Below are positions 4,041-19,430 of a stretch of DNA of 64,000 nucleotides, piece by piece. Positions within the stretch are counted from its first letter, which is position 1. Every line of letters begins with the position of its first letter. The stretch comes from an uncultured virus (IMG/VR IMGVR_UViG_3300031772_000018) (lineage: Duplodnaviria; Heunggongvirae; Uroviricota; Caudoviricetes). Location: IMG/VR virus record IMGVR_UViG_3300031772_000018, one strand, 5' to 3'. Below the pieces are notes generated by a model. It was not told where the DNA came from. It saw only the letters and a list, made by a program, of their open reading frames with translations, and did not search any database. The position numbers were made by a program, and so were the translations under genes.

Positions 4041-4220
4041 ATGTGGACGAAACCTAAATCGTGGGGCGGTTATGATACCGCTAAGGGAAAGTTTTATCTA
4101 CAAACCAAAGATGGTTTTTATATTACGGAAACCTCAACGGTGTGGGATGAAGCCTATGAGCTTTGGTTGAGCGGTAAAAGTAAGTGGAGTCTGTTTGGTT
4201 ACAAAGAAAAATTGATATGA
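4041..4220 (+). CDS. small hypothetical protein (59 aa, MWTKPKSWGG...)
   Basis: Starts right after promoter at ~4006; stop overlaps the ligase start (ATGA). Confidence 0.65.
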   Translation: MWTKPKSWGGYDTAKGKFYLQTKDGFYITETSTVWDEAYELWLSGKSKWSLFGYKEKLI

Positions 4221-5191
4221 TTAAATTCCCAGAAATTGAAGGTCTGCATCAGATTGTCAAGATGCTTGACAAGTATCCTCAGTATATTCCTGTTGCACCC
4301 ATCGTGTATAAAGGTAAAATCAAACTACACGGCACCAATGGTAGTGTTGCAATTTATCCTGACGGCCGTGTAATTGCGCAGAGCCGTGAGCAAGAATTGG
4401 TTGATGGTGCTGATAATGCTGGGTTTGCTAAGTGGGTTGAAAGCAACCTGATTCATTTCCGCTGTCTTCAAGATAATGTCCAAGTTACTGTATTCGGTGA
4501 ATGGTGTGGGAAGGGCATTAACAAGGGTTGTGCAATTCATCAGATTCCTGAAAAACAATTTGTAGTTTTTATGATTCAGTTTGGTGACAATGAAACCGGT
4601 CAGTGTTATACCGAGCCGCATATTCTTGAAGATATTTTGGAATACATTCCGAATATCAATGTTTTGCCGTGGTATGAACCTGCTGAAATCACACTTGATT
4701 ATTCTAATAAGAGTCAATTGCGTGAGCAAGCAGACAAGATTTCTGCACTTGTTCTTGAAGTTGAGAAGTGTGACCCGTGGGTTAAATTACAATTTGCTGT
4801 AGAAGGAATTGGTGAGGGCATTGTTTATTATCCTCAAATTCCTATGGACCGTGAGAGCTACACACGTTATATGTTTAAGGCTAAGGGTGAGAAGCATCAG
4901 GTTGTTGTTCAGAAGCAAGCCGTGCAAGTTGATCCCGAAGTGGCCAAGAGCATTGACGAATTTGTGACGATGTTTGTTACAGAGAATCGTTGTCAACAGG
5001 GACTTAACGTTGCCTGTGGTGATGTTCTTGACCGCAAGTTGACGGGACAATTCTTGAAGTGGCTCTGTCAGGATGTCTTAAAGGAAAGTAAAACCGAATT
5101 AGAAGCGTCTAACCTTACGTGGGATGACGTTAAACAAGCTGTGCAGAAGGCTGCGCAGAAGTGGTGGCTTATCAAAACTGCTTCCATTTAA
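4217..5191 (+). CDS. ATP-dependent RNA ligase, Rnl2-like family
   Basis: Nucleotidyltransferase motifs KLHGTN, FGEWCG, EGIVY, FKAK; start reassigned to ATG 4217. Confidence 0.85.
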   Translation: MIKFPEIEGLHQIVKMLDKYPQYIPVAPIVYKGKIKLHGTNGSVAIYPDGRVIAQSREQELVDGADNAGFAKWVESNLIHFRCLQDNVQVTVFGEWCGKGINKGCAIHQIPEKQFVVFMIQFGDNETGQCYTEPHILEDILEYIPNINVLPWYEPAEITLDYSNKSQLREQADKISALVLEVEKCDPWVKLQFAVEGIGEGIVYYPQIPMDRESYTRYMFKAKGEKHQVVVQKQAVQVDPEVAKSIDEFVTMFVTENRCQQGLNVACGDVLDRKLTGQFLKWLCQDVLKESKTELEASNLTWDDVKQAVQKAAQKWWLIKTASI

Positions 5192-5666: not shown

Positions 5667-5846
5667 ATGAATAAGAGTGTTACAAAGTATTCACGGGTTA
5701 TCAATGCCCGTGAAGAAAGGGATGCTTGGAAGGCTTCCAAGCGGGGTAAGGTTCGTAATCCCAATGGCAGACGGGAACGCCAAAAATATACTTACCAACA
5801 AATCATTGACATTTTGGCCGATGAACAGGACAGATATGACAGATAA
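5667..5846 (+). CDS. small basic hypothetical protein (59 aa, MNKSVTKYSR...)
   Basis: ORF filling the gap; stop overlaps the HD gene start region. Confidence 0.55.
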   Translation: MNKSVTKYSRVINAREERDAWKASKRGKVRNPNGRRERQKYTYQQIIDILADEQDRYDR

Positions 5847-6414
5847 AGCAACGATTCTGCCTGAGGATGAATTTACAGAGATTTCTAAAGTTGACCTTGT
5901 TAGCAAAGCTCTAACCTTTGCTACGAAGGCGCATGAAGGGCAGACACGCAAGTATACAGTTGAGCCGTATATCAATCATCCGATACGGGTGATGGAAAAG
6001 GTTAAAACGGTAACAAGTGAACCGACGATGCTTGCTGCGGCTCTCTTGCATGATGTTGTTGAGGATTGTGGGGTTAATCTGACTACGATTGAAAAAGAAT
6101 TTGGTCTTGGTGTTGCTCTATTAGTTTTTCAGTTGACAAGTCCAAGCAAACAATTTCCTAAGATGGAGAGAGCAAACCGCAAACAATTAGACCGCTACCA
6201 TTTAGCTGTTGCTAGTGGTGATGCTCAGACAATTAAATTTGCGGACTTCCTTGATAATGTTCCGAGTATCGTTAAGCATGACCCTGAGTTTGGTAAGGTT
6301 TATGTATTGGAAAAGATTGCAGATGTACATGTTATGACGAAGGGCAATACATATTTGCTGAAAGAAGTTCGTGAAATGCTTTACCGAGCCTCAACAGATT
6401 TGGAAATCGTTTAA
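5836..6414 (+). CDS. HD-domain hydrolase, RelA/SpoT (Mesh1/small alarmone hydrolase)-like
   Basis: AHEGQTRK, PYINHP, LLHDVVED, KFADFLDN motifs; likely start ATG 5836. Confidence 0.88.
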   Translation: MTDKATILPEDEFTEISKVDLVSKALTFATKAHEGQTRKYTVEPYINHPIRVMEKVKTVTSEPTMLAAALLHDVVEDCGVNLTTIEKEFGLGVALLVFQLTSPSKQFPKMERANRKQLDRYHLAVASGDAQTIKFADFLDNVPSIVKHDPEFGKVYVLEKIADVHVMTKGNTYLLKEVREMLYRASTDLEIV

Positions 6415-8459: not shown

Positions 8460-8744
8460 ATGAATTCTACATTTACGGTTGGTCGGCATGAAGCAATTCT
8501 CGAGCAATATGCTGGTCAGACAATTATCCATTCGTTTCGTAGAATGGATGTTGGATTATTTTCTACCCGAGGCATATTATCATTAGAATTAGATGAAAAG
8601 TCCAATCGGATGTATTTTAAGACTTTTAATCCGAAGACGGCGCAAGCTACAGCCTCACGGGTGGACGCAATTTCGGGAATGGAAACCACAGAGTTAGTTG
8701 GACCTGAGAAAATAAAGTTGCTTCACGTTTATACGGAGATTTAA
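8460..8744 (+). CDS. hypothetical protein
   Basis: Packed 94-aa ORF. Confidence 0.65.
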   Translation: MNSTFTVGRHEAILEQYAGQTIIHSFRRMDVGLFSTRGILSLELDEKSNRMYFKTFNPKTAQATASRVDAISGMETTELVGPEKIKLLHVYTEI

Positions 8745-8785
8745 ATTGCTCTTGACAAATATATAAAAATGGATATACTTATTGT

Positions 8786-9330
8786 TAGTTGAGTGACGCT
8801 AGCAGTTACTTGACTTGAAGGCAGCGGAAATGAATCAGGTTGCAACGCGTTATCTGACAAAGCCAAAGGCTGCCTAAAAATTTAGAAGTGTAGTCACGAA
8901 TCGGTTGGCAGGTTCAACCTAACATCGCAACACGAGGCTTTCGAAAAGTCAGACGGGCGGGATGGCCAGCAGACCGTGACTCGATTTAGAAGTAAATGGT
9001 TCTTTAACAATTTAGCATCGCACTTGGTAGGACAAGTGCTGTCGGGGTAAGCCCGGCCGAGGTTGCGTGTAAACCTTGCCTGTTACCTCTCTGGCCAACC
9101 ATTCGACGTCGAGTGAGTCCTGGAGAAATAATAACGGATAAGCAGGGGAGTAGGGAGTAAGCGATTAAATGATGAATTTTTGACGCCGATAACAATCACA
9201 GCTCCACCAATTTAGTGCCTTCACCGGTGGTGAACCAACCCCTGCAGGGGTTATGCTTCAAGCCGTACTAGAAGGCATTAAAAAATGCTGGTGGGGTCGC
9301 TCCCCTTTATCACAATTCTGTGGACAGCAA
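8786..9330 (+). ncRNA. multi-module structured ncRNA cassette A
   Basis: Promoter 8752-8779 with no credible ORF; closed modules AGGCAGC/GCTGCCT, AGTCACG/CGTGACT, GTGCCTTC/GAAGGCAT, many GC-rich hairpins, ATTTAG linkers, boxA-like GTTCTTTAACA at 8999. Confidence 0.65.
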
Positions 9331-9374
9331 AATTTCCACTTGACATTATTATAAAAATAGCGATAATAAAGACT

Positions 9375-9605
9375 ATGAAAGCTTACTTTGTCTGTAATCA
9401 TTGTGGTGAAGTCATTGATGTTAAAGGCCTTAACCAAGAAGTCGAATGTCCTCGTTGTTATCGTGAGGTCAATGTTGAAAATGCCAGTGAATATGGTGAA
9501 CGTCCTGAAGTTGAATTCAACGAGTATAACGATAAGGATGTCACAGATTGTGCCAATGGCGATTATAATACTTGGGAAGAAAATCAAATCGCTAACGAGG
9601 AATAG
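9375..9605 (+). CDS. Zn-ribbon protein with acidic tail
   Basis: CNHC...CPRC; start just after promoter at ~9340. Confidence 0.75.
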   Translation: MKAYFVCNHCGEVIDVKGLNQEVECPRCYREVNVENASEYGERPEVEFNEYNDKDVTDCANGDYNTWEENQIANEE

Positions 9606-10140
9606 ATTTAAGAAAATTTTTTATTTCATCGTTGGTAAATGAATTTTTTGCGTAATTCAACGCAACACAAACAAGTTGAATGTTGTCTTTGGTGTATGGT
9701 TTATTGGAGTTAATTCTATCAATGGAAATCACATCAGGAGTTTTTGGACATCTCTCTCCAGAATGTTTAGGAGTCTTGAGTTTAAGTCCTGATAAAGCAC
9801 AAATTCCATTTTGTTTTTCAAATTGTTTACGTACATCATCAATTGTAATTAAACAATCTTGTTTTCTACTATTTTTAACAGAATTGAAAACTCTCACAAA
9901 AGGAGAATTGATGGTAAGTGGTCTATTAAATTTTTCTAATCCTTTTTTTCTTCTTATTTTTTCTCTACGACATCTTTGTTTGAGATTTATTTTTTCTAAA
10001 TTTTTTGCCTTCCATCGTTTATTAGAAGCCTTTATTTTTTCAGAATTATTTCTTCGATATTTTGCACAGATTGCTTTCCGTTTTAATTTGTATTCAATGT
10101 CTTTAATAACCTCATTCAATAATTGTATATCTTCATTCAT
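9592..10140 (-). CDS. HNH-type homing endonuclease
   Basis: CALSG...SIDRINSNKPYTKDNIQLVCVALNYAKN; basic N-terminus; GGAG upstream of ATG 10140. Confidence 0.8.
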   Translation of the reverse strand: MNEDIQLLNEVIKDIEYKLKRKAICAKYRRNNSEKIKASNKRWKAKNLEKINLKQRCRREKIRRKKGLEKFNRPLTINSPFVRVFNSVKNSRKQDCLITIDDVRKQFEKQNGICALSGLKLKTPKHSGERCPKTPDVISIDRINSNKPYTKDNIQLVCVALNYAKNSFTNDEIKNFLKSIPR

Positions 10141-11385: not shown

Positions 11386-11431
11386 ATAATCTTCTCCATT
11401 AAGATAAATAGTGTTATCTATTCAAAAACAA

Positions 11432-12508
11432 ATGAAAATTTCATTAAATAACTACGATTTTACCGATTTTATTGTGCATGAACAAGAATTTTGTGGTGTT
11501 TCTTCAAAACTCATTCAACCACAACACATTGGAATTAAATTTAATCAGACCAATAAGATTTTTCGTTCTTCAATTTGGGATTTGGAAGGCAATCTGTTGT
11601 CTGCTGGTTTTCCTAAGTTTACTAATTTTGGTGAGAATTCAGAAAATTTTACTGTCCCCCTCTCTGTTAATGGTGTCGATTTTGTAACTAAAATCGACGG
11701 CTCTCTTGTCTGTATTGATTTTGTTAATGAGCGTCTGAATATGCGCACGCGAGGCACCTTCCATCACACATCATTAGAAAATTGGGCAGACTTTGAGTAT
11801 TGCTTAAATAACAATCCTAAGCTTGTTGAATGGCTCAAGAAGAATTCCAATTATACTTTGCTTTGTGAAATTACTACGCCCAATTTGAAAATAGTCATTG
11901 ACTACGGTGTTACGCCACAATTTTGGTTGGTCGGCGCCATCAATAAAAATGACTATTCTCTTATGATTCAATCTGAATTAAATGGACTTGCGATTGAATT
12001 AAATATCAATCGTCCTGAAGTTTATTCATTTAATTCTATTGAACATTGTATTGATTCCGTAAAACTTTGGAATGGTAAGGAAGGTGTCTGCTTATACTCT
12101 CAAAACGGCCAAGCAATTCACAAAATCAAAGCAGAAATTTATTTGAAGTTGCATCGGTTTAAGGAAAATGCAACGATGGATAACACTATTGATTTATTTT
12201 TTGAATATAATTGTCCTTCATATAATACTTTTCTTGAAATGTTAATGGCGCAGTTTGATTTTGAATGCATGCAAATGGTTTTACCGTTTGTTTCAAAGAT
12301 TGTTGACTCAAAGAAAAAGGTTGATGTCATTGTTGCTCATATGAAGTCATTTGTTGAGCCTCTCAAGGTTGTCTCCCGTAAGGATGCTGCGTTAGCGATT
12401 GTTGGCTCTTACGGTAAGACTAACCGCTCATCGTTTATGTTTTCTCTATTGGATGGTAAGGAATTAACTGTCGAACAAATGAAGAAATTGGTGTATCAGT
12501 GCTTGTAA
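11432..12508 (+). CDS. RNA ligase, T4 Rnl1-like
   Basis: FPKFTN, KIDGSL, TRG, EGVCL, KIKAEIYLKLH motifs. Confidence 0.85.
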   Translation: MKISLNNYDFTDFIVHEQEFCGVSSKLIQPQHIGIKFNQTNKIFRSSIWDLEGNLLSAGFPKFTNFGENSENFTVPLSVNGVDFVTKIDGSLVCIDFVNERLNMRTRGTFHHTSLENWADFEYCLNNNPKLVEWLKKNSNYTLLCEITTPNLKIVIDYGVTPQFWLVGAINKNDYSLMIQSELNGLAIELNINRPEVYSFNSIEHCIDSVKLWNGKEGVCLYSQNGQAIHKIKAEIYLKLHRFKENATMDNTIDLFFEYNCPSYNTFLEMLMAQFDFECMQMVLPFVSKIVDSKKKVDVIVAHMKSFVEPLKVVSRKDAALAIVGSYGKTNRSSFMFSLLDGKELTVEQMKKLVYQCL

Positions 12509-15459: not shown

Positions 15460-15651
15460 ATGAAAGTTAAGTTCCTCCACGAATCCAAAATTCGTATCAA
15501 AATTAACCGCTATTGCGGCGATGGTTGCTGCAGCTGGCCGGAATGGGTGGATTCTGAAGCATTCAAGGACGAGGAGTATGTCGTTGATGATGAAGTAGAT
15601 GTGACGGGACTTGTATTTAATAAAGACTACATAATCATTGAGTATCCATAA
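15460..15651 (+). CDS. small acidic Cys-containing protein
   Basis: CGDGCC; promoter at ~15423. Confidence 0.65.
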   Translation: MKVKFLHESKIRIKINRYCGDGCCSWPEWVDSEAFKDEEYVVDDEVDVTGLVFNKDYIIIEYP

Positions 15652-16397
15652 TGAAAACAATCGTAATCAGCGACTTGCACAATCAAGTGTCATGGGTCGA
15701 AGGCTATTTAGCCTCAACGACTTACGACGAAGTTGTGTTTCTTGGCGATTACTTTGATAATTTCTACGATTCGCTTGTTGACATTAAAAGGGCTGCAGAA
15801 TGGCTCAAAAATAGTCTTAAACAGCGCAACCGCATACACTTATGGGGCAACCACGATTTGTGGTATGCTCATCCTCTTGCTAAAGGTTTGCACTGTTCTG
15901 GCAATACAAGTGAGAAGCAAGTAACCATAGAAGGTGTGTTGGATGCTGATGATTGGCAACAGCTTAGGCTCTGTTATTTTAGTCAAAACTTCCTATTTAG
16001 CCATGCTGGCATTCATAAGTCTTGGGCATTACATTCTATAAAAGGGTTTGATTATCAATACCTTACGGAGATTTGTGAGGAAGCGCTTACGTATGCTAAG
16101 TGTGGTCATACGCCGCGCCTATTGCGTGCAGGATGGTCAAGGGGCGGTGATTTACCTGTTGGTGGTATAACTTGGTTGGATTACGATACGGAATTTGTAC
16201 CAATCAATGGGATTCATCAAATTGTGGGTCATACACCGCATCCAAACCCTTTAGGGAAAGGTATTTACAAAGCTTCTCCGAACAGGAAGGATAGTTTGAG
16301 CAACAATTACGATGTAGATTTTGCTAATCGGTATATAACGATTGTTCAGGATGGCGTCGTAAGTCATGAAAAGAGTCCATTTTTCAACGATAATTAA
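15651..16397 (+). CDS. calcineurin-like metallophosphoesterase
   Basis: SDLH, GDYFD, GNHD, SHAG, GHT motifs. Confidence 0.92.
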   Translation: MKTIVISDLHNQVSWVEGYLASTTYDEVVFLGDYFDNFYDSLVDIKRAAEWLKNSLKQRNRIHLWGNHDLWYAHPLAKGLHCSGNTSEKQVTIEGVLDADDWQQLRLCYFSQNFLFSHAGIHKSWALHSIKGFDYQYLTEICEEALTYAKCGHTPRLLRAGWSRGGDLPVGGITWLDYDTEFVPINGIHQIVGHTPHPNPLGKGIYKASPNRKDSLSNNYDVDFANRYITIVQDGVVSHEKSPFFNDN

Positions 16398-17035: not shown

Positions 17036-17380
17036 ATGACAAACGACAAAGTTATTAAGTTTCTTCGCGGTCTTGCCCTAACTTCACTCCCCTGTTCTCC
17101 TGTTATCAAGGAACAAGCGCTCGACCTCTTAATTGAGATTAGCCCAAGTCCAGAGATGTTTTATACGATTGTCGGCTCGACAGCAATGGGCAGTCCACGT
17201 TTTAATCTTTCTCCTACGCAATACATTATCATTGATGATTTTCTTGCTATGGGTAATAAGATTGCTGCTATTAAGGAAATCCGGCGGGTGACAAATTGGG
17301 GCTTGAGGGATGCTAAGGATGCATCAGAGGATGTACGTAATTTTACCAATGCTAAGCCTCCTGTTTTTACAGCATTTTAA
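17036..17380 (+). CDS. protein with ribosomal bL12 (L7/L12) C-terminal domain
   Basis: NKIAAIKEIRRVTNWGLRDAKDASE matches the bL12 CTD signature; N-terminus unrelated to bL12. Confidence 0.8.
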   Translation: MTNDKVIKFLRGLALTSLPCSPVIKEQALDLLIEISPSPEMFYTIVGSTAMGSPRFNLSPTQYIIIDDFLAMGNKIAAIKEIRRVTNWGLRDAKDASEDVRNFTNAKPPVFTAF

Positions 17381-17624: not shown

Positions 17625-18061
17625 CGTTGAGAAAACAACGCTAAAATAAACCGTGGGAGTCAATGTTAAAGACCCGTCAGGAAATGACAAGCGAGCAAAC
17701 CGGTTAGAAGCCAACCTTAAACTCAATGCTAGTGACTAGCAAAGTCAGACAAGACTGAAAAACCATCAGCACAAGATGTAAAAATCAGTCCGAGCAAGAC
17801 TTAAAACTCTCAGTCAGGAAAGACTCAAACATCAGTCATGACACGACTAAAACATCAGTCCGAACAAGACTCTAAATTGTCAGTCAGGACAAGACTCAAA
17901 AACCAGTCAGTCAAGACTTAAAAACCGCCGATGGTGAGTGGCGTAAAACAGAACCAAGTCTTTGATTGGCCTAGACGATAAACAAGTGCGCAACGAGGTT
18001 TCTTTTACGGCGAGCCGATACGGCGTAACCGAGTTTTCTTTTATCGCAATTAAAGAAAACT
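17625..18061 (+). ncRNA. ORF-free transcript containing a periodic mini-hairpin array
   Basis: Promoter TTGACA(17591)-N16-TATGAT(17613); repeated stem-loops; terminal hairpin GTTTTCTTT/AAAGAAAAC. Confidence 0.7.
17743..17949 (+). repeat. nine tandem 21-25 nt hairpin units (C-AGTC-N6/7-GACT-A-rich linker)
   Basis: Stems start at 17743, 17764 (CATC/GATG), 17787, 17812, 17834, 17857, 17882, 17905, 17926 (CGCC/GGCG). Confidence 0.9.
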
Positions 18062-18107
18062 TCCATTTTCCTCTTGACTTATTATATAATTTCTGTATAA
18101 TTATACT

Positions 18108-18749: not shown

Positions 18750-18794
18750 TTAAATAGATGTTGACAAATATATAAAAATATATATACTTGTTAG

Positions 18795-19385
18795 TAGTGA
18801 GTTGTTAATTGGTTAGTTTGATGGAGACTTTAACAACTTTCTCTCCCGTGCTGGGGGAGACGAGATCCATCAGCGGCGACCAACCGCGTCAAGACAAAAT
18901 GAATTTTAGATGTTGATGGCTGGGGGCACTACAGCAGCTATCAAATAAGGTTTATGGTAATCCTAAAAAACCACTGGTAGCGGAGGTTGTAAATGTTCTT
19001 TTGATAACTTATGGGCAAGAAAGCTCAAAATGGTAGAGAGCGCATTATGTAGACCCGATTGACGAATCTAGTGTAACGCACTATAGGCGGCGCCGTGAAC
19101 CGGTAAAGCGGACCAACGGTTTATATCACGAACACTCGAAGTAAAGAGGTAGCGGGTTCGACTCCCGCCTTGCCCATCAATTTGTTTCGCTGGATTATAC
19201 TGTAGAACGGTATAGGCGTAGAGTGTCCTGAGGAGGTATGGCTTCGTCGGACCTAAGACTAACACGCACCATAACAAGCGAAACAATCAATTTGCAAACG
19301 GTGCTAGACCGCATCGAATCACGGATTTTTCTAGCCTACTCCGTGTGAAGTTTTTTGGTTGTCGAATATAAGCAAACCAAAGCTA
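18795..19385 (+). ncRNA. multi-module structured ncRNA cassette B
   Basis: Promoter 18761-18788, no credible ORF; pseudoknot-like 5' module, boxA-like TGTTCTTTTGA at 18994, tRNA-like module, module closed by TTGTTTCGCT/AGCGAAACAA, AATTTG linkers. Confidence 0.65.
19013..19176 (+). ncRNA. tRNA-like RNA with ~100-nt structured insert replacing the anticodon arm
   Basis: Acceptor GGGCAAG/CTTGCCC-A, D-arm GCTC-AAAATGGTAGA-GAGC, T-arm GCGGG-TTCGACT-CCCGC; no 7-nt anticodon loop; followed by TCA not CCA. Confidence 0.75.
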
Positions 19386-19430
19386 TTTTGTTGTTGACAT
19401 TTATTATAATTTCCGTATAATAAGAGAATA

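Follow-up and report, generated by a model that had tools for sequence, protein, structure and literature searches.

A promoter-led stretch of about 550 nt in a large T4-like phage genome has the layout of a phage tRNA operon and is probably transcribed and cut into small structured RNAs. In the account that we tentatively favor, it is a tRNA-free stable-RNA operon cut at AU-rich spacers, and its first module acts in trans on the mRNA of an RNA ligase of the same phage. The antisense match behind that last step may be functional, which we consider possible but somewhat doubtful; the account as a whole is slightly more credible because most of it is independent of the match.

The window, that is, the whole stretch of DNA analyzed here, comprises 64,000 nt of the uncultured virus record IMGVR_UViG_3300031772_000018. 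It is part of a large T4-like phage genome and includes genes for baseplate proteins, primase, PhoH, a gp30.3-like protein, and two RNA ligases, together with tRNAs and a tmRNA. An IMG/VR record of identical sequence (L001/G001; 49 kb, 15% complete by CheckV) supplied 7.8 kb further upstream with more tRNAs, and the phage sequence available, a partial genome, amounts to 71.8 kb (~72 kb). This record represents the same virus and thus gives no independent support. The promoter pattern had 25 matches on the + strand, 24 of these in the first 25.1 kb, and 0 matches on the - strand of the window; the 24 sigma70-like matches (801-25067, +) nearly all have a 16-nt spacer. The same part of the genome encodes an RNA-repair-type set (4217-5191, 5677-6414, 11411-12508, and 15651-16397: Rnl2 and Rnl1 ligases, an HD phosphohydrolase, and a metallophosphoesterase) and an ORF (17036-17380, +) that matches the C-terminal domain of ribosomal protein L7/L12.

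The cassette consists of 6 predicted modules, M0 to M5, and its features are listed below; the z values of single modules are in register with boundaries that were picked by eye.

8752-8779, +: sigma70-type promoter, TTGACA-16-TATACT, with a 16-nt spacer
8787-8815, +: M0, 5′ hairpin of 11 bp, three of them G-U, located where the transcript is predicted to begin (z -3.18)
8814-8843, +: antisense segment, carried by M1
8819-8875, +: M1, hairpin containing the antisense segment, closing stem 8819-8825/8869-8875 (z -2.82)
8880-8885, +: ATTTAG spacer 1
8892-8981, +: M2, three-way junction module without Rfam match, closing stem 8892-8898/8975-8981 (z -2.56)
8984-8989, +: ATTTAG spacer 2
8998-9009, +: boxA-like antitermination motif
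9010-9015, +: ATTTAG spacer 3, tail of the boxA-like motif
9016-9209, +: M3, four hairpins (9020-9039, 9041-9057, 9058-9078, and about 9080-9146) followed by a weak stem that has ACCA at its end, with the CCA end at 9207-9209
9210-9215, +: ATTTAG spacer 4, immediately 3′ of the CCA
9215-9278, +: M4, long interrupted hairpin, closing stem 9215-9222/9271-9278 (z -4.92)
9286-9329, +: M5, small two-hairpin junction, then AATTT (z -1.79)
9340-9367, +: next promoter, serving the ORF that begins at 9375
4217-5191, +: Rnl2-family RNA ligase gene
4443-4472, +: target of 30 nt, codons 76-86 of the ligase, complement of 8814-8843
27702: ATTTAG directly 3′ of the tmRNA

A first-pass annotation, made from the sequence alone, had placed structured RNA modules behind an early promoter in this gene-free region. 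Its promoter, its 5′ hairpin with three G-U pairs, and its three closing stems (M1, M2, and M4) were all recovered, and no plausible ORF was found, as no start codon on the + strand of the cassette combines a ribosome-binding motif with a reading frame of at least 8 codons. The annotation had missed the tRNA/tmRNA-operon layout and the 30-nt antisense match to the ligase. The unit is arranged as a stable-RNA operon, with a promoter followed by untranslated sequence, and its promoter region matches that of an RNA cluster at 18.75 kb at 83% over 54 nt. The + strand, which the annotation had preferred, folds better than 100 of 100 shuffles over 8786-9335 (z -3.90), against z -0.39 on the - strand, and the modules stay separate in the centroid fold. 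In a blind tiling with 120-nt windows, which gave z < -2 in 27 of 250 windows across the first 30 kb, 3 of the 5 cassette windows reached z < -2 and the two 3′ windows failed; structure in the 3′ half is thus not above shuffles in blind windows. The 5′ part of M3 (9010-9150) had a z of -2.31, and the CCA-ending part (9140-9215), with z -1.24, folded no better than shuffles.

The ATTTAG hexamer occurs, as reported earlier, four times in the cassette (8880, 8984, 9010, and 9210) and once right after the tmRNA CCA (27702). Four copies within 336 nt, compared with 26 on the + strand of the 64 kb, correspond to a Poisson P of 1.3e-5, or about 0.002 once corrected for windows, the motif having been chosen after it was seen. 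Of the 6 [A/G]ATTT sites of the cassette, 5 coincide with edges of predicted modules and the other is within M3; the third ATTTAG forms the tail of the boxA-like motif, and the fourth can pair into the M4 stem. An additional [A/G]ATTT site, absent from the earlier list, lies 3′ of M5. The region of spacer 4 is identical over 14 nt to the tmRNA 3′ end plus its spacer. All 7 [A/G]ATTT sites in the tRNA cluster of this phage mark the end of an element, which is a CCA end in 6 cases and the end of a non-tRNA module in 1. When this phage is taken together with 9 other phage records (10 in all), (A)TTT follows 88 of 124 CCA-ending tRNA/tmRNA genes, compared with 1471 of 25480 background CCA (5.8%). 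Because ATTT follows tRNA/tmRNA CCA ends in this way, the cassette linker is the ordinary stable-RNA spacer of the phage group. The earlier suggestion of a precursor cut at AU-rich linkers is therefore made more plausible by the same spacer behind the tRNA and tmRNA CCA of this phage and by the boxA-like motif, which marks the unit as an untranslated operon; ATTTAG, however, is not a linker special to the cassette. RNase E of E. coli cleaves AU-rich sequence immediately 3′ of the tRNA CCA, for example in proM (PMC5291269), and cutting just 3′ of tRNA CCA ends is also described in PMC2190699. Another non-tRNA structured module, about 7520-7440 nt upstream of window position 1 between two tRNA-Leu genes (L010), is closed by an ATTT spacer as well.

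The boxA element recruits NusB/S10 and shields untranslated RNA from Rho (PMC12360218). The motif at 8998-9009 matches the rrn boxA consensus of E. coli (PMC13753749) at 10 of 12 positions. It resembles rrn boxA in this match and in its place upstream of untranslated RNA (PMC12360218, PMC13753749), and differs in that it lies ~210 nt into the unit and not beside the promoter; binding of NusB/S10 is putative. The 71.8 kb of phage sequence holds 2 copies of this motif class, one in the cassette and one 18 nt before the tmRNA. A boxA-like motif, defined after the sequences had been viewed, lies <=40 nt upstream of 6 of 144 tRNA/tmRNA genes, with 0.08 expected. M3 is placed between boxA-ATTT and CCA-ATTT, where a tRNA would sit. 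A further boxA pattern search in 5 records stayed at control level (2 matches, 3 in the control), and the boxA region, too short as a blastn query, had no match in E. coli genomes. A 26-nt likeness of the cassette to the RNA cluster of a relative (L117) was rejected as a homology, as it is confined to the boxA-like motif. No literature combining phage, tRNA cluster, boxA, and antitermination was found. The boxA-like motif together with the CCA-ATTT spacer provides a simple rule for locating unannotated RNA operons in this phage group.

The earlier view that the modules belong to no known RNA family agrees with Rfam, which gave no match to them; nothing in the cassette reached gathering level, and the sole match up to E 10 was ToxI on the - strand (15.7 bits, E 5.4), at chance level. 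Covariance models of ribozymes, riboswitches, GOLLD/ROOL/OLE, and the other Rfam families had no match in the cassette, and likenesses to 5S rRNA, RNase P, the c-di-GMP riboswitch, twister, and pistol motifs were dropped on the same grounds. ARAGORN and Rfam found no tRNA or tmRNA gene inside the cassette. The tRNA-like CCA end noted earlier exists (9207-9209) but is not part of a tRNA: M3 has no T arm before 9209 and no cloverleaf, and ARAGORN was negative even at a relaxed threshold. No terminator-like site was found across 8600-9700.

The ligase gene at 4217-5191 belongs to the Rnl2 family (Pfam RNA_ligase, E 3e-13; PHROG 548), a profile of 9 ligase relatives matches T4 RNA ligase 2 at E 1.3e-10, and the gene has its own promoter-like site at about 4008. 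Segment 8814-8843 is identical at 29 of 30 positions to the minus strand of 4443-4472 (blastn, E 7.6e-9), a complementarity to a distant mRNA, 4.3 kb away, that is beyond chance; it is the only distant inverted match in a self-comparison of the window. The target begins 226 nt after the ATG at 4217, not at the ribosome-binding site, and contains an AUUU. At the single difference, G 8821 faces U 4465 of the mRNA as a G-U pair at a third codon position, and with this G the M1 stem is more stable, at -19.4 instead of -12.2 kcal/mol. Of 1000 shuffles, 97% fit the antisense arm less well than the 3′ arm of M1 does (P 0.03). The bulk of the segment is predicted to be paired inside M1; unpaired probabilities predict an open internal loop (about 8826-8834, ~9 nt) as a toehold and 3-4 further open nt at the 5′ side of M1. 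Cofolding of M1 with the ligase mRNA gave a gain of -33.6 kcal/mol. When G-U pairs were allowed, the score of 61 (median 33) was the top one among the ORF-free gaps of this phage against coding strands, and M2-M5 had no partner above background in the 72 kb available.

The 10-residue segment encoded by the target shares 2-3 residues with the three closest ligases, which are 58-72% identical overall, and it ranks among the least conserved 7-12% of 10-residue windows in these comparisons. Because the target is so poorly conserved, the match is not an ancient leftover similarity; it is recent or maintained. Extension of the match into either flank was not significant (P 0.22 and 0.26). By blastn, none of 9 other phage records had an intergenic-versus-gene antisense match of this kind, and none of 4 of these records had a comparable match with G-U allowed; high G-U-tolerant scores in relatives were set aside as tRNA-tRNA likeness or duplicated genes or promoters (two checked, the rest judged from the sequences). 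The lack of extension and of such pairs in other phages, the mid-gene position of the target, and the pairing of most of the segment within M1 weigh against a function. A longer bulged antisense alignment, as in an editing-like guide, was ruled out by shuffling. An 18-mer of the segment had 17 matches in GTDB, the estimated chance number, none of them extending, and no host spacer or target was seen.

In the proposed mechanism, host polymerase would start at about 8786, NusB/S10 would bind boxA and shield the untranslated RNA from Rho, and a host RNase E-type nuclease would cut at the AUUU spacers and release the modules, with M0 serving as a 5′ protective hairpin. RNase E, RNase III, and the Nus factors are assumptions about the host. 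A 30-bp RNA duplex is a substrate of RNase III. Less firmly, M0-M1 might seed on the ligase mRNA through its open loop and pair over 30 bp within the coding region, at a net of about -34 kcal/mol; this duplex might trigger RNase III-type cleavage and damp ligase output. By analogy with the non-tRNA RNAs in the tRNA clusters of other phages, M2-M5 are most likely stable structured RNAs.

The strong rival for the antisense match, unlikely though we hold it to be, is that the operon is real and that a template switch or an inverted insertion carried a ligase fragment into an existing hairpin by accident, recently and without regulatory role. The match is a single occurrence absent from all relatives examined, its target lies deep in the coding region, and its near-perfect identity to a segment that changes fast is consistent with a recent event. 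Such an accident sits less easily with a copy that lies right behind a strong promoter, on the antisense-producing strand, and that forms, in register, the 5′ arm of a hairpin with a well-fitting 3′ arm (P 0.03); moreover, the M1 closing stem needs the one mismatched base, which implies at least one adjustment after copying. If the match is accidental, what is left is a group of orphan phage RNAs, which would be of modest interest. Whether the modules are separated at all is the issue in another reading, in which the cassette yields one long uncut structured RNA of about 550 nt, or M2 and M3 form one switchable unit. Cross-module complementarity (8960-8969 or 8903-8909 with 9091-9100), the pairing of spacer 4 into the M4 stem, and the lack of a terminator speak for it; we nevertheless consider it quite improbable, given that the modules stay apart in the centroid fold, that the spacers are the same as those between tRNAs, and that a related strain swaps a whole block of the sister cluster (18799-18934, one contig).

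The target encodes an Rnl2-family enzyme and contains an AUUU, which would also suit a protective action of M1, either as a splint that holds a nick in the ligase mRNA within a duplex, the substrate of Rnl2-type ligases, or as a shield that bars a host nuclease or crRNA from the site. This is very unlikely in our estimation: there is no sign of cleavage at the site, the 30-bp duplex would itself be an RNase III substrate, and no precedent was found in the literature searched. T4 Rnl2 does seal 3′-OH/5′-PO4 nicks in duplexes (PMC3884662), and in trypanosomes, ligases of the Rnl2 type take part in guide-RNA-directed editing (PMC3400036). An equally speculative extension would make M1 a splint for the phage's own Rnl2 and the operon a rack of exchangeable modules whose first slot was re-programmed by the copying of ~30 nt of a gene; if the splint reading were true, host-made nicks would be resealed in a bacterial-virus counterpart of guide-RNA-directed ligation. 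Even less credible is a CRISPR-like or OMEGA-like guide, composed of a hairpin handle and a 30-nt spacer for a nuclease. The spacer-like length, the 5′ hairpin directly before the segment, the sharp ends of the match, and an HNH-type ORF 260 nt downstream invite this comparison, whereas no repeats flank the segment, its own 3′ arm pairs with it, and the guide would target self. In addition, no Cas family was found among the 59 window ORFs scanned (~72 kb of genome available), the HNH ORF runs on the other strand and has its matches among ordinary phage endonucleases, and Rfam gave no CRISPR or HEARO match. A CRISPR mini-array (no direct repeats flanking a spacer) and an IscB/TnpB omega RNA (HEARO; no Rfam match and no co-oriented RuvC/HNH gene) were thus rejected.

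Returning to the stable-RNA operon, T4 RNAC and RNAD are located in a tRNA cluster, and they are the nearest precedent for unexplained phage RNAs. They are expressed structured non-coding RNAs of a T4-type phage, with no known function (PMC9697503). The cassette likewise has the spacer grammar of a tRNA cluster, and differs in having no tRNA in the unit and in that its RNAs are predicted from sequence, whereas theirs were shown to be expressed (PMC9697503). The C4 RNA of P1/P7 is freed from a longer precursor by a host nuclease and pairs in trans with the phage's own mRNA via exposed loops, both of which are proposed for M1; however, C4 pairs through two short loops at ribosome-binding sites, its three-stem fold is conserved, and it is processed by RNase P (PMC5320573), and M1 has one 30-nt near-perfect stretch against a mid-gene sequence. 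A C4 antisense RNA was therefore rejected, with no Rfam C4 match up to E 10 and a target away from the ribosome-binding site. The phage sRNAs DicF, OOP, sar, aQ, and PAK_P4as15 (PMC12197685) were also compared. OOP promotes the decay of a phage mRNA by RNase III, as proposed for M1, and DicF, made from an operon, acts in trans. OOP, sar, and aQ, however, are encoded in cis, and DicF pairs briefly with host mRNAs (PMC12197685). M1 has cis-like complementarity, yet its locus is 4.3 kb away. PeSL cassettes of T4-type phages are similar in that strong sigma70-like promoters bound a small accessory unit, which lies in an early region that is variable, but their stem-loops are terminators beside promoters (PMC2839356), whereas the cassette has 550 nt of modules and no U-tract terminator; with 0 terminator-like sites in 8600-9700, this identity was discarded. 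The cassette is thus comparable to phage tRNA operons in its production and to C4 or OOP in its proposed action. In the open-licence literature searched, we found no phage whose own RNA ligase is targeted by a near-perfect antisense RNA from a distant locus, as the match would suggest, and antisense action of M1, if true, would be a form of self-regulation without precedent in that literature. Large phages carry many structured RNAs in tRNA regions, almost none with an assigned function, and for M1 the candidate target is unambiguous, namely the RNA-repair ligase of the phage itself.

No search returned a cassette homolog besides the identical same-virus record. Blastn against INPHARED gave one 28-nt match (E 0.6), plasmids gave no match, and exact cassette patterns in IMG/VR matched only the phage itself. 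Phage records reached via PhoH, Rnl2, and gp30.3-like or rIIB-like proteins contained no cassette DNA (0/34, a count that excludes 11 metagenome loci, 0/32, and 0/5). Nhmmer with the cassette on 234 loci (2.17 Mb) found no homolog, and single-sequence covariance models of M2, M3, and M4 had no match on 94 sources (1.47 Mb), nor did the M2 model on 38 records or the M3 model on 5. Six supplementary files of PMC10690425 had no match to cassette motifs. The nearest relative by PhoH (86%) is on a fragment without this region, and since the relatives are distant and mostly partial, the absence of homologs means little. Without a homolog there is no covariation, and module structures and boundaries thus rest on one sequence. 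Two relatives (G004 and L117) share the architecture, with different non-tRNA modules placed between their tRNAs. In a divergent strain (run X22), about 8774-9349 was without cover, and one contig had other sequence before 9350; this comparison used contigs of 4 of 24 DNA runs and left 199 differences uninspected, and because the cover is patchy, the missing cassette is not evidence. The closest relative (L227) has imperfect 23-44-nt direct repeats at a contig end (G003, 1-1240).

Several other RNA loci were observed. The phage tmRNA (27317-27701, +) encodes the tag AENSNTYGFVYDNGLVLA, and a tmRNA just upstream of phoH is also present in many relatives. An ORF-free array at 17640-18070 (+) contains about eight degenerate AAGACT-A-rich-TCAGTC units behind a promoter; it folds weakly (z -1.6), has no Rfam match and no homolog, and could be a protein-binding sponge RNA. 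A second promoter-led RNA cluster occupies 18790-19395 (+; z -2.3), and in a related strain 18799-18934 is replaced by 26 letters, the whole block being exchanged (one contig). Within this cluster, a tRNA-like element (19013-19180, +) has an acceptor stem, a D arm, and a T arm, and a multi-hairpin insert of ~100 nt instead of an anticodon arm. ARAGORN did not call it and Rfam matches its T arm only; a boxA-like stretch precedes it and ATTT follows it. Elements of similar plan are present in G004 (about 279190-279355) and L117 (2081-2358).
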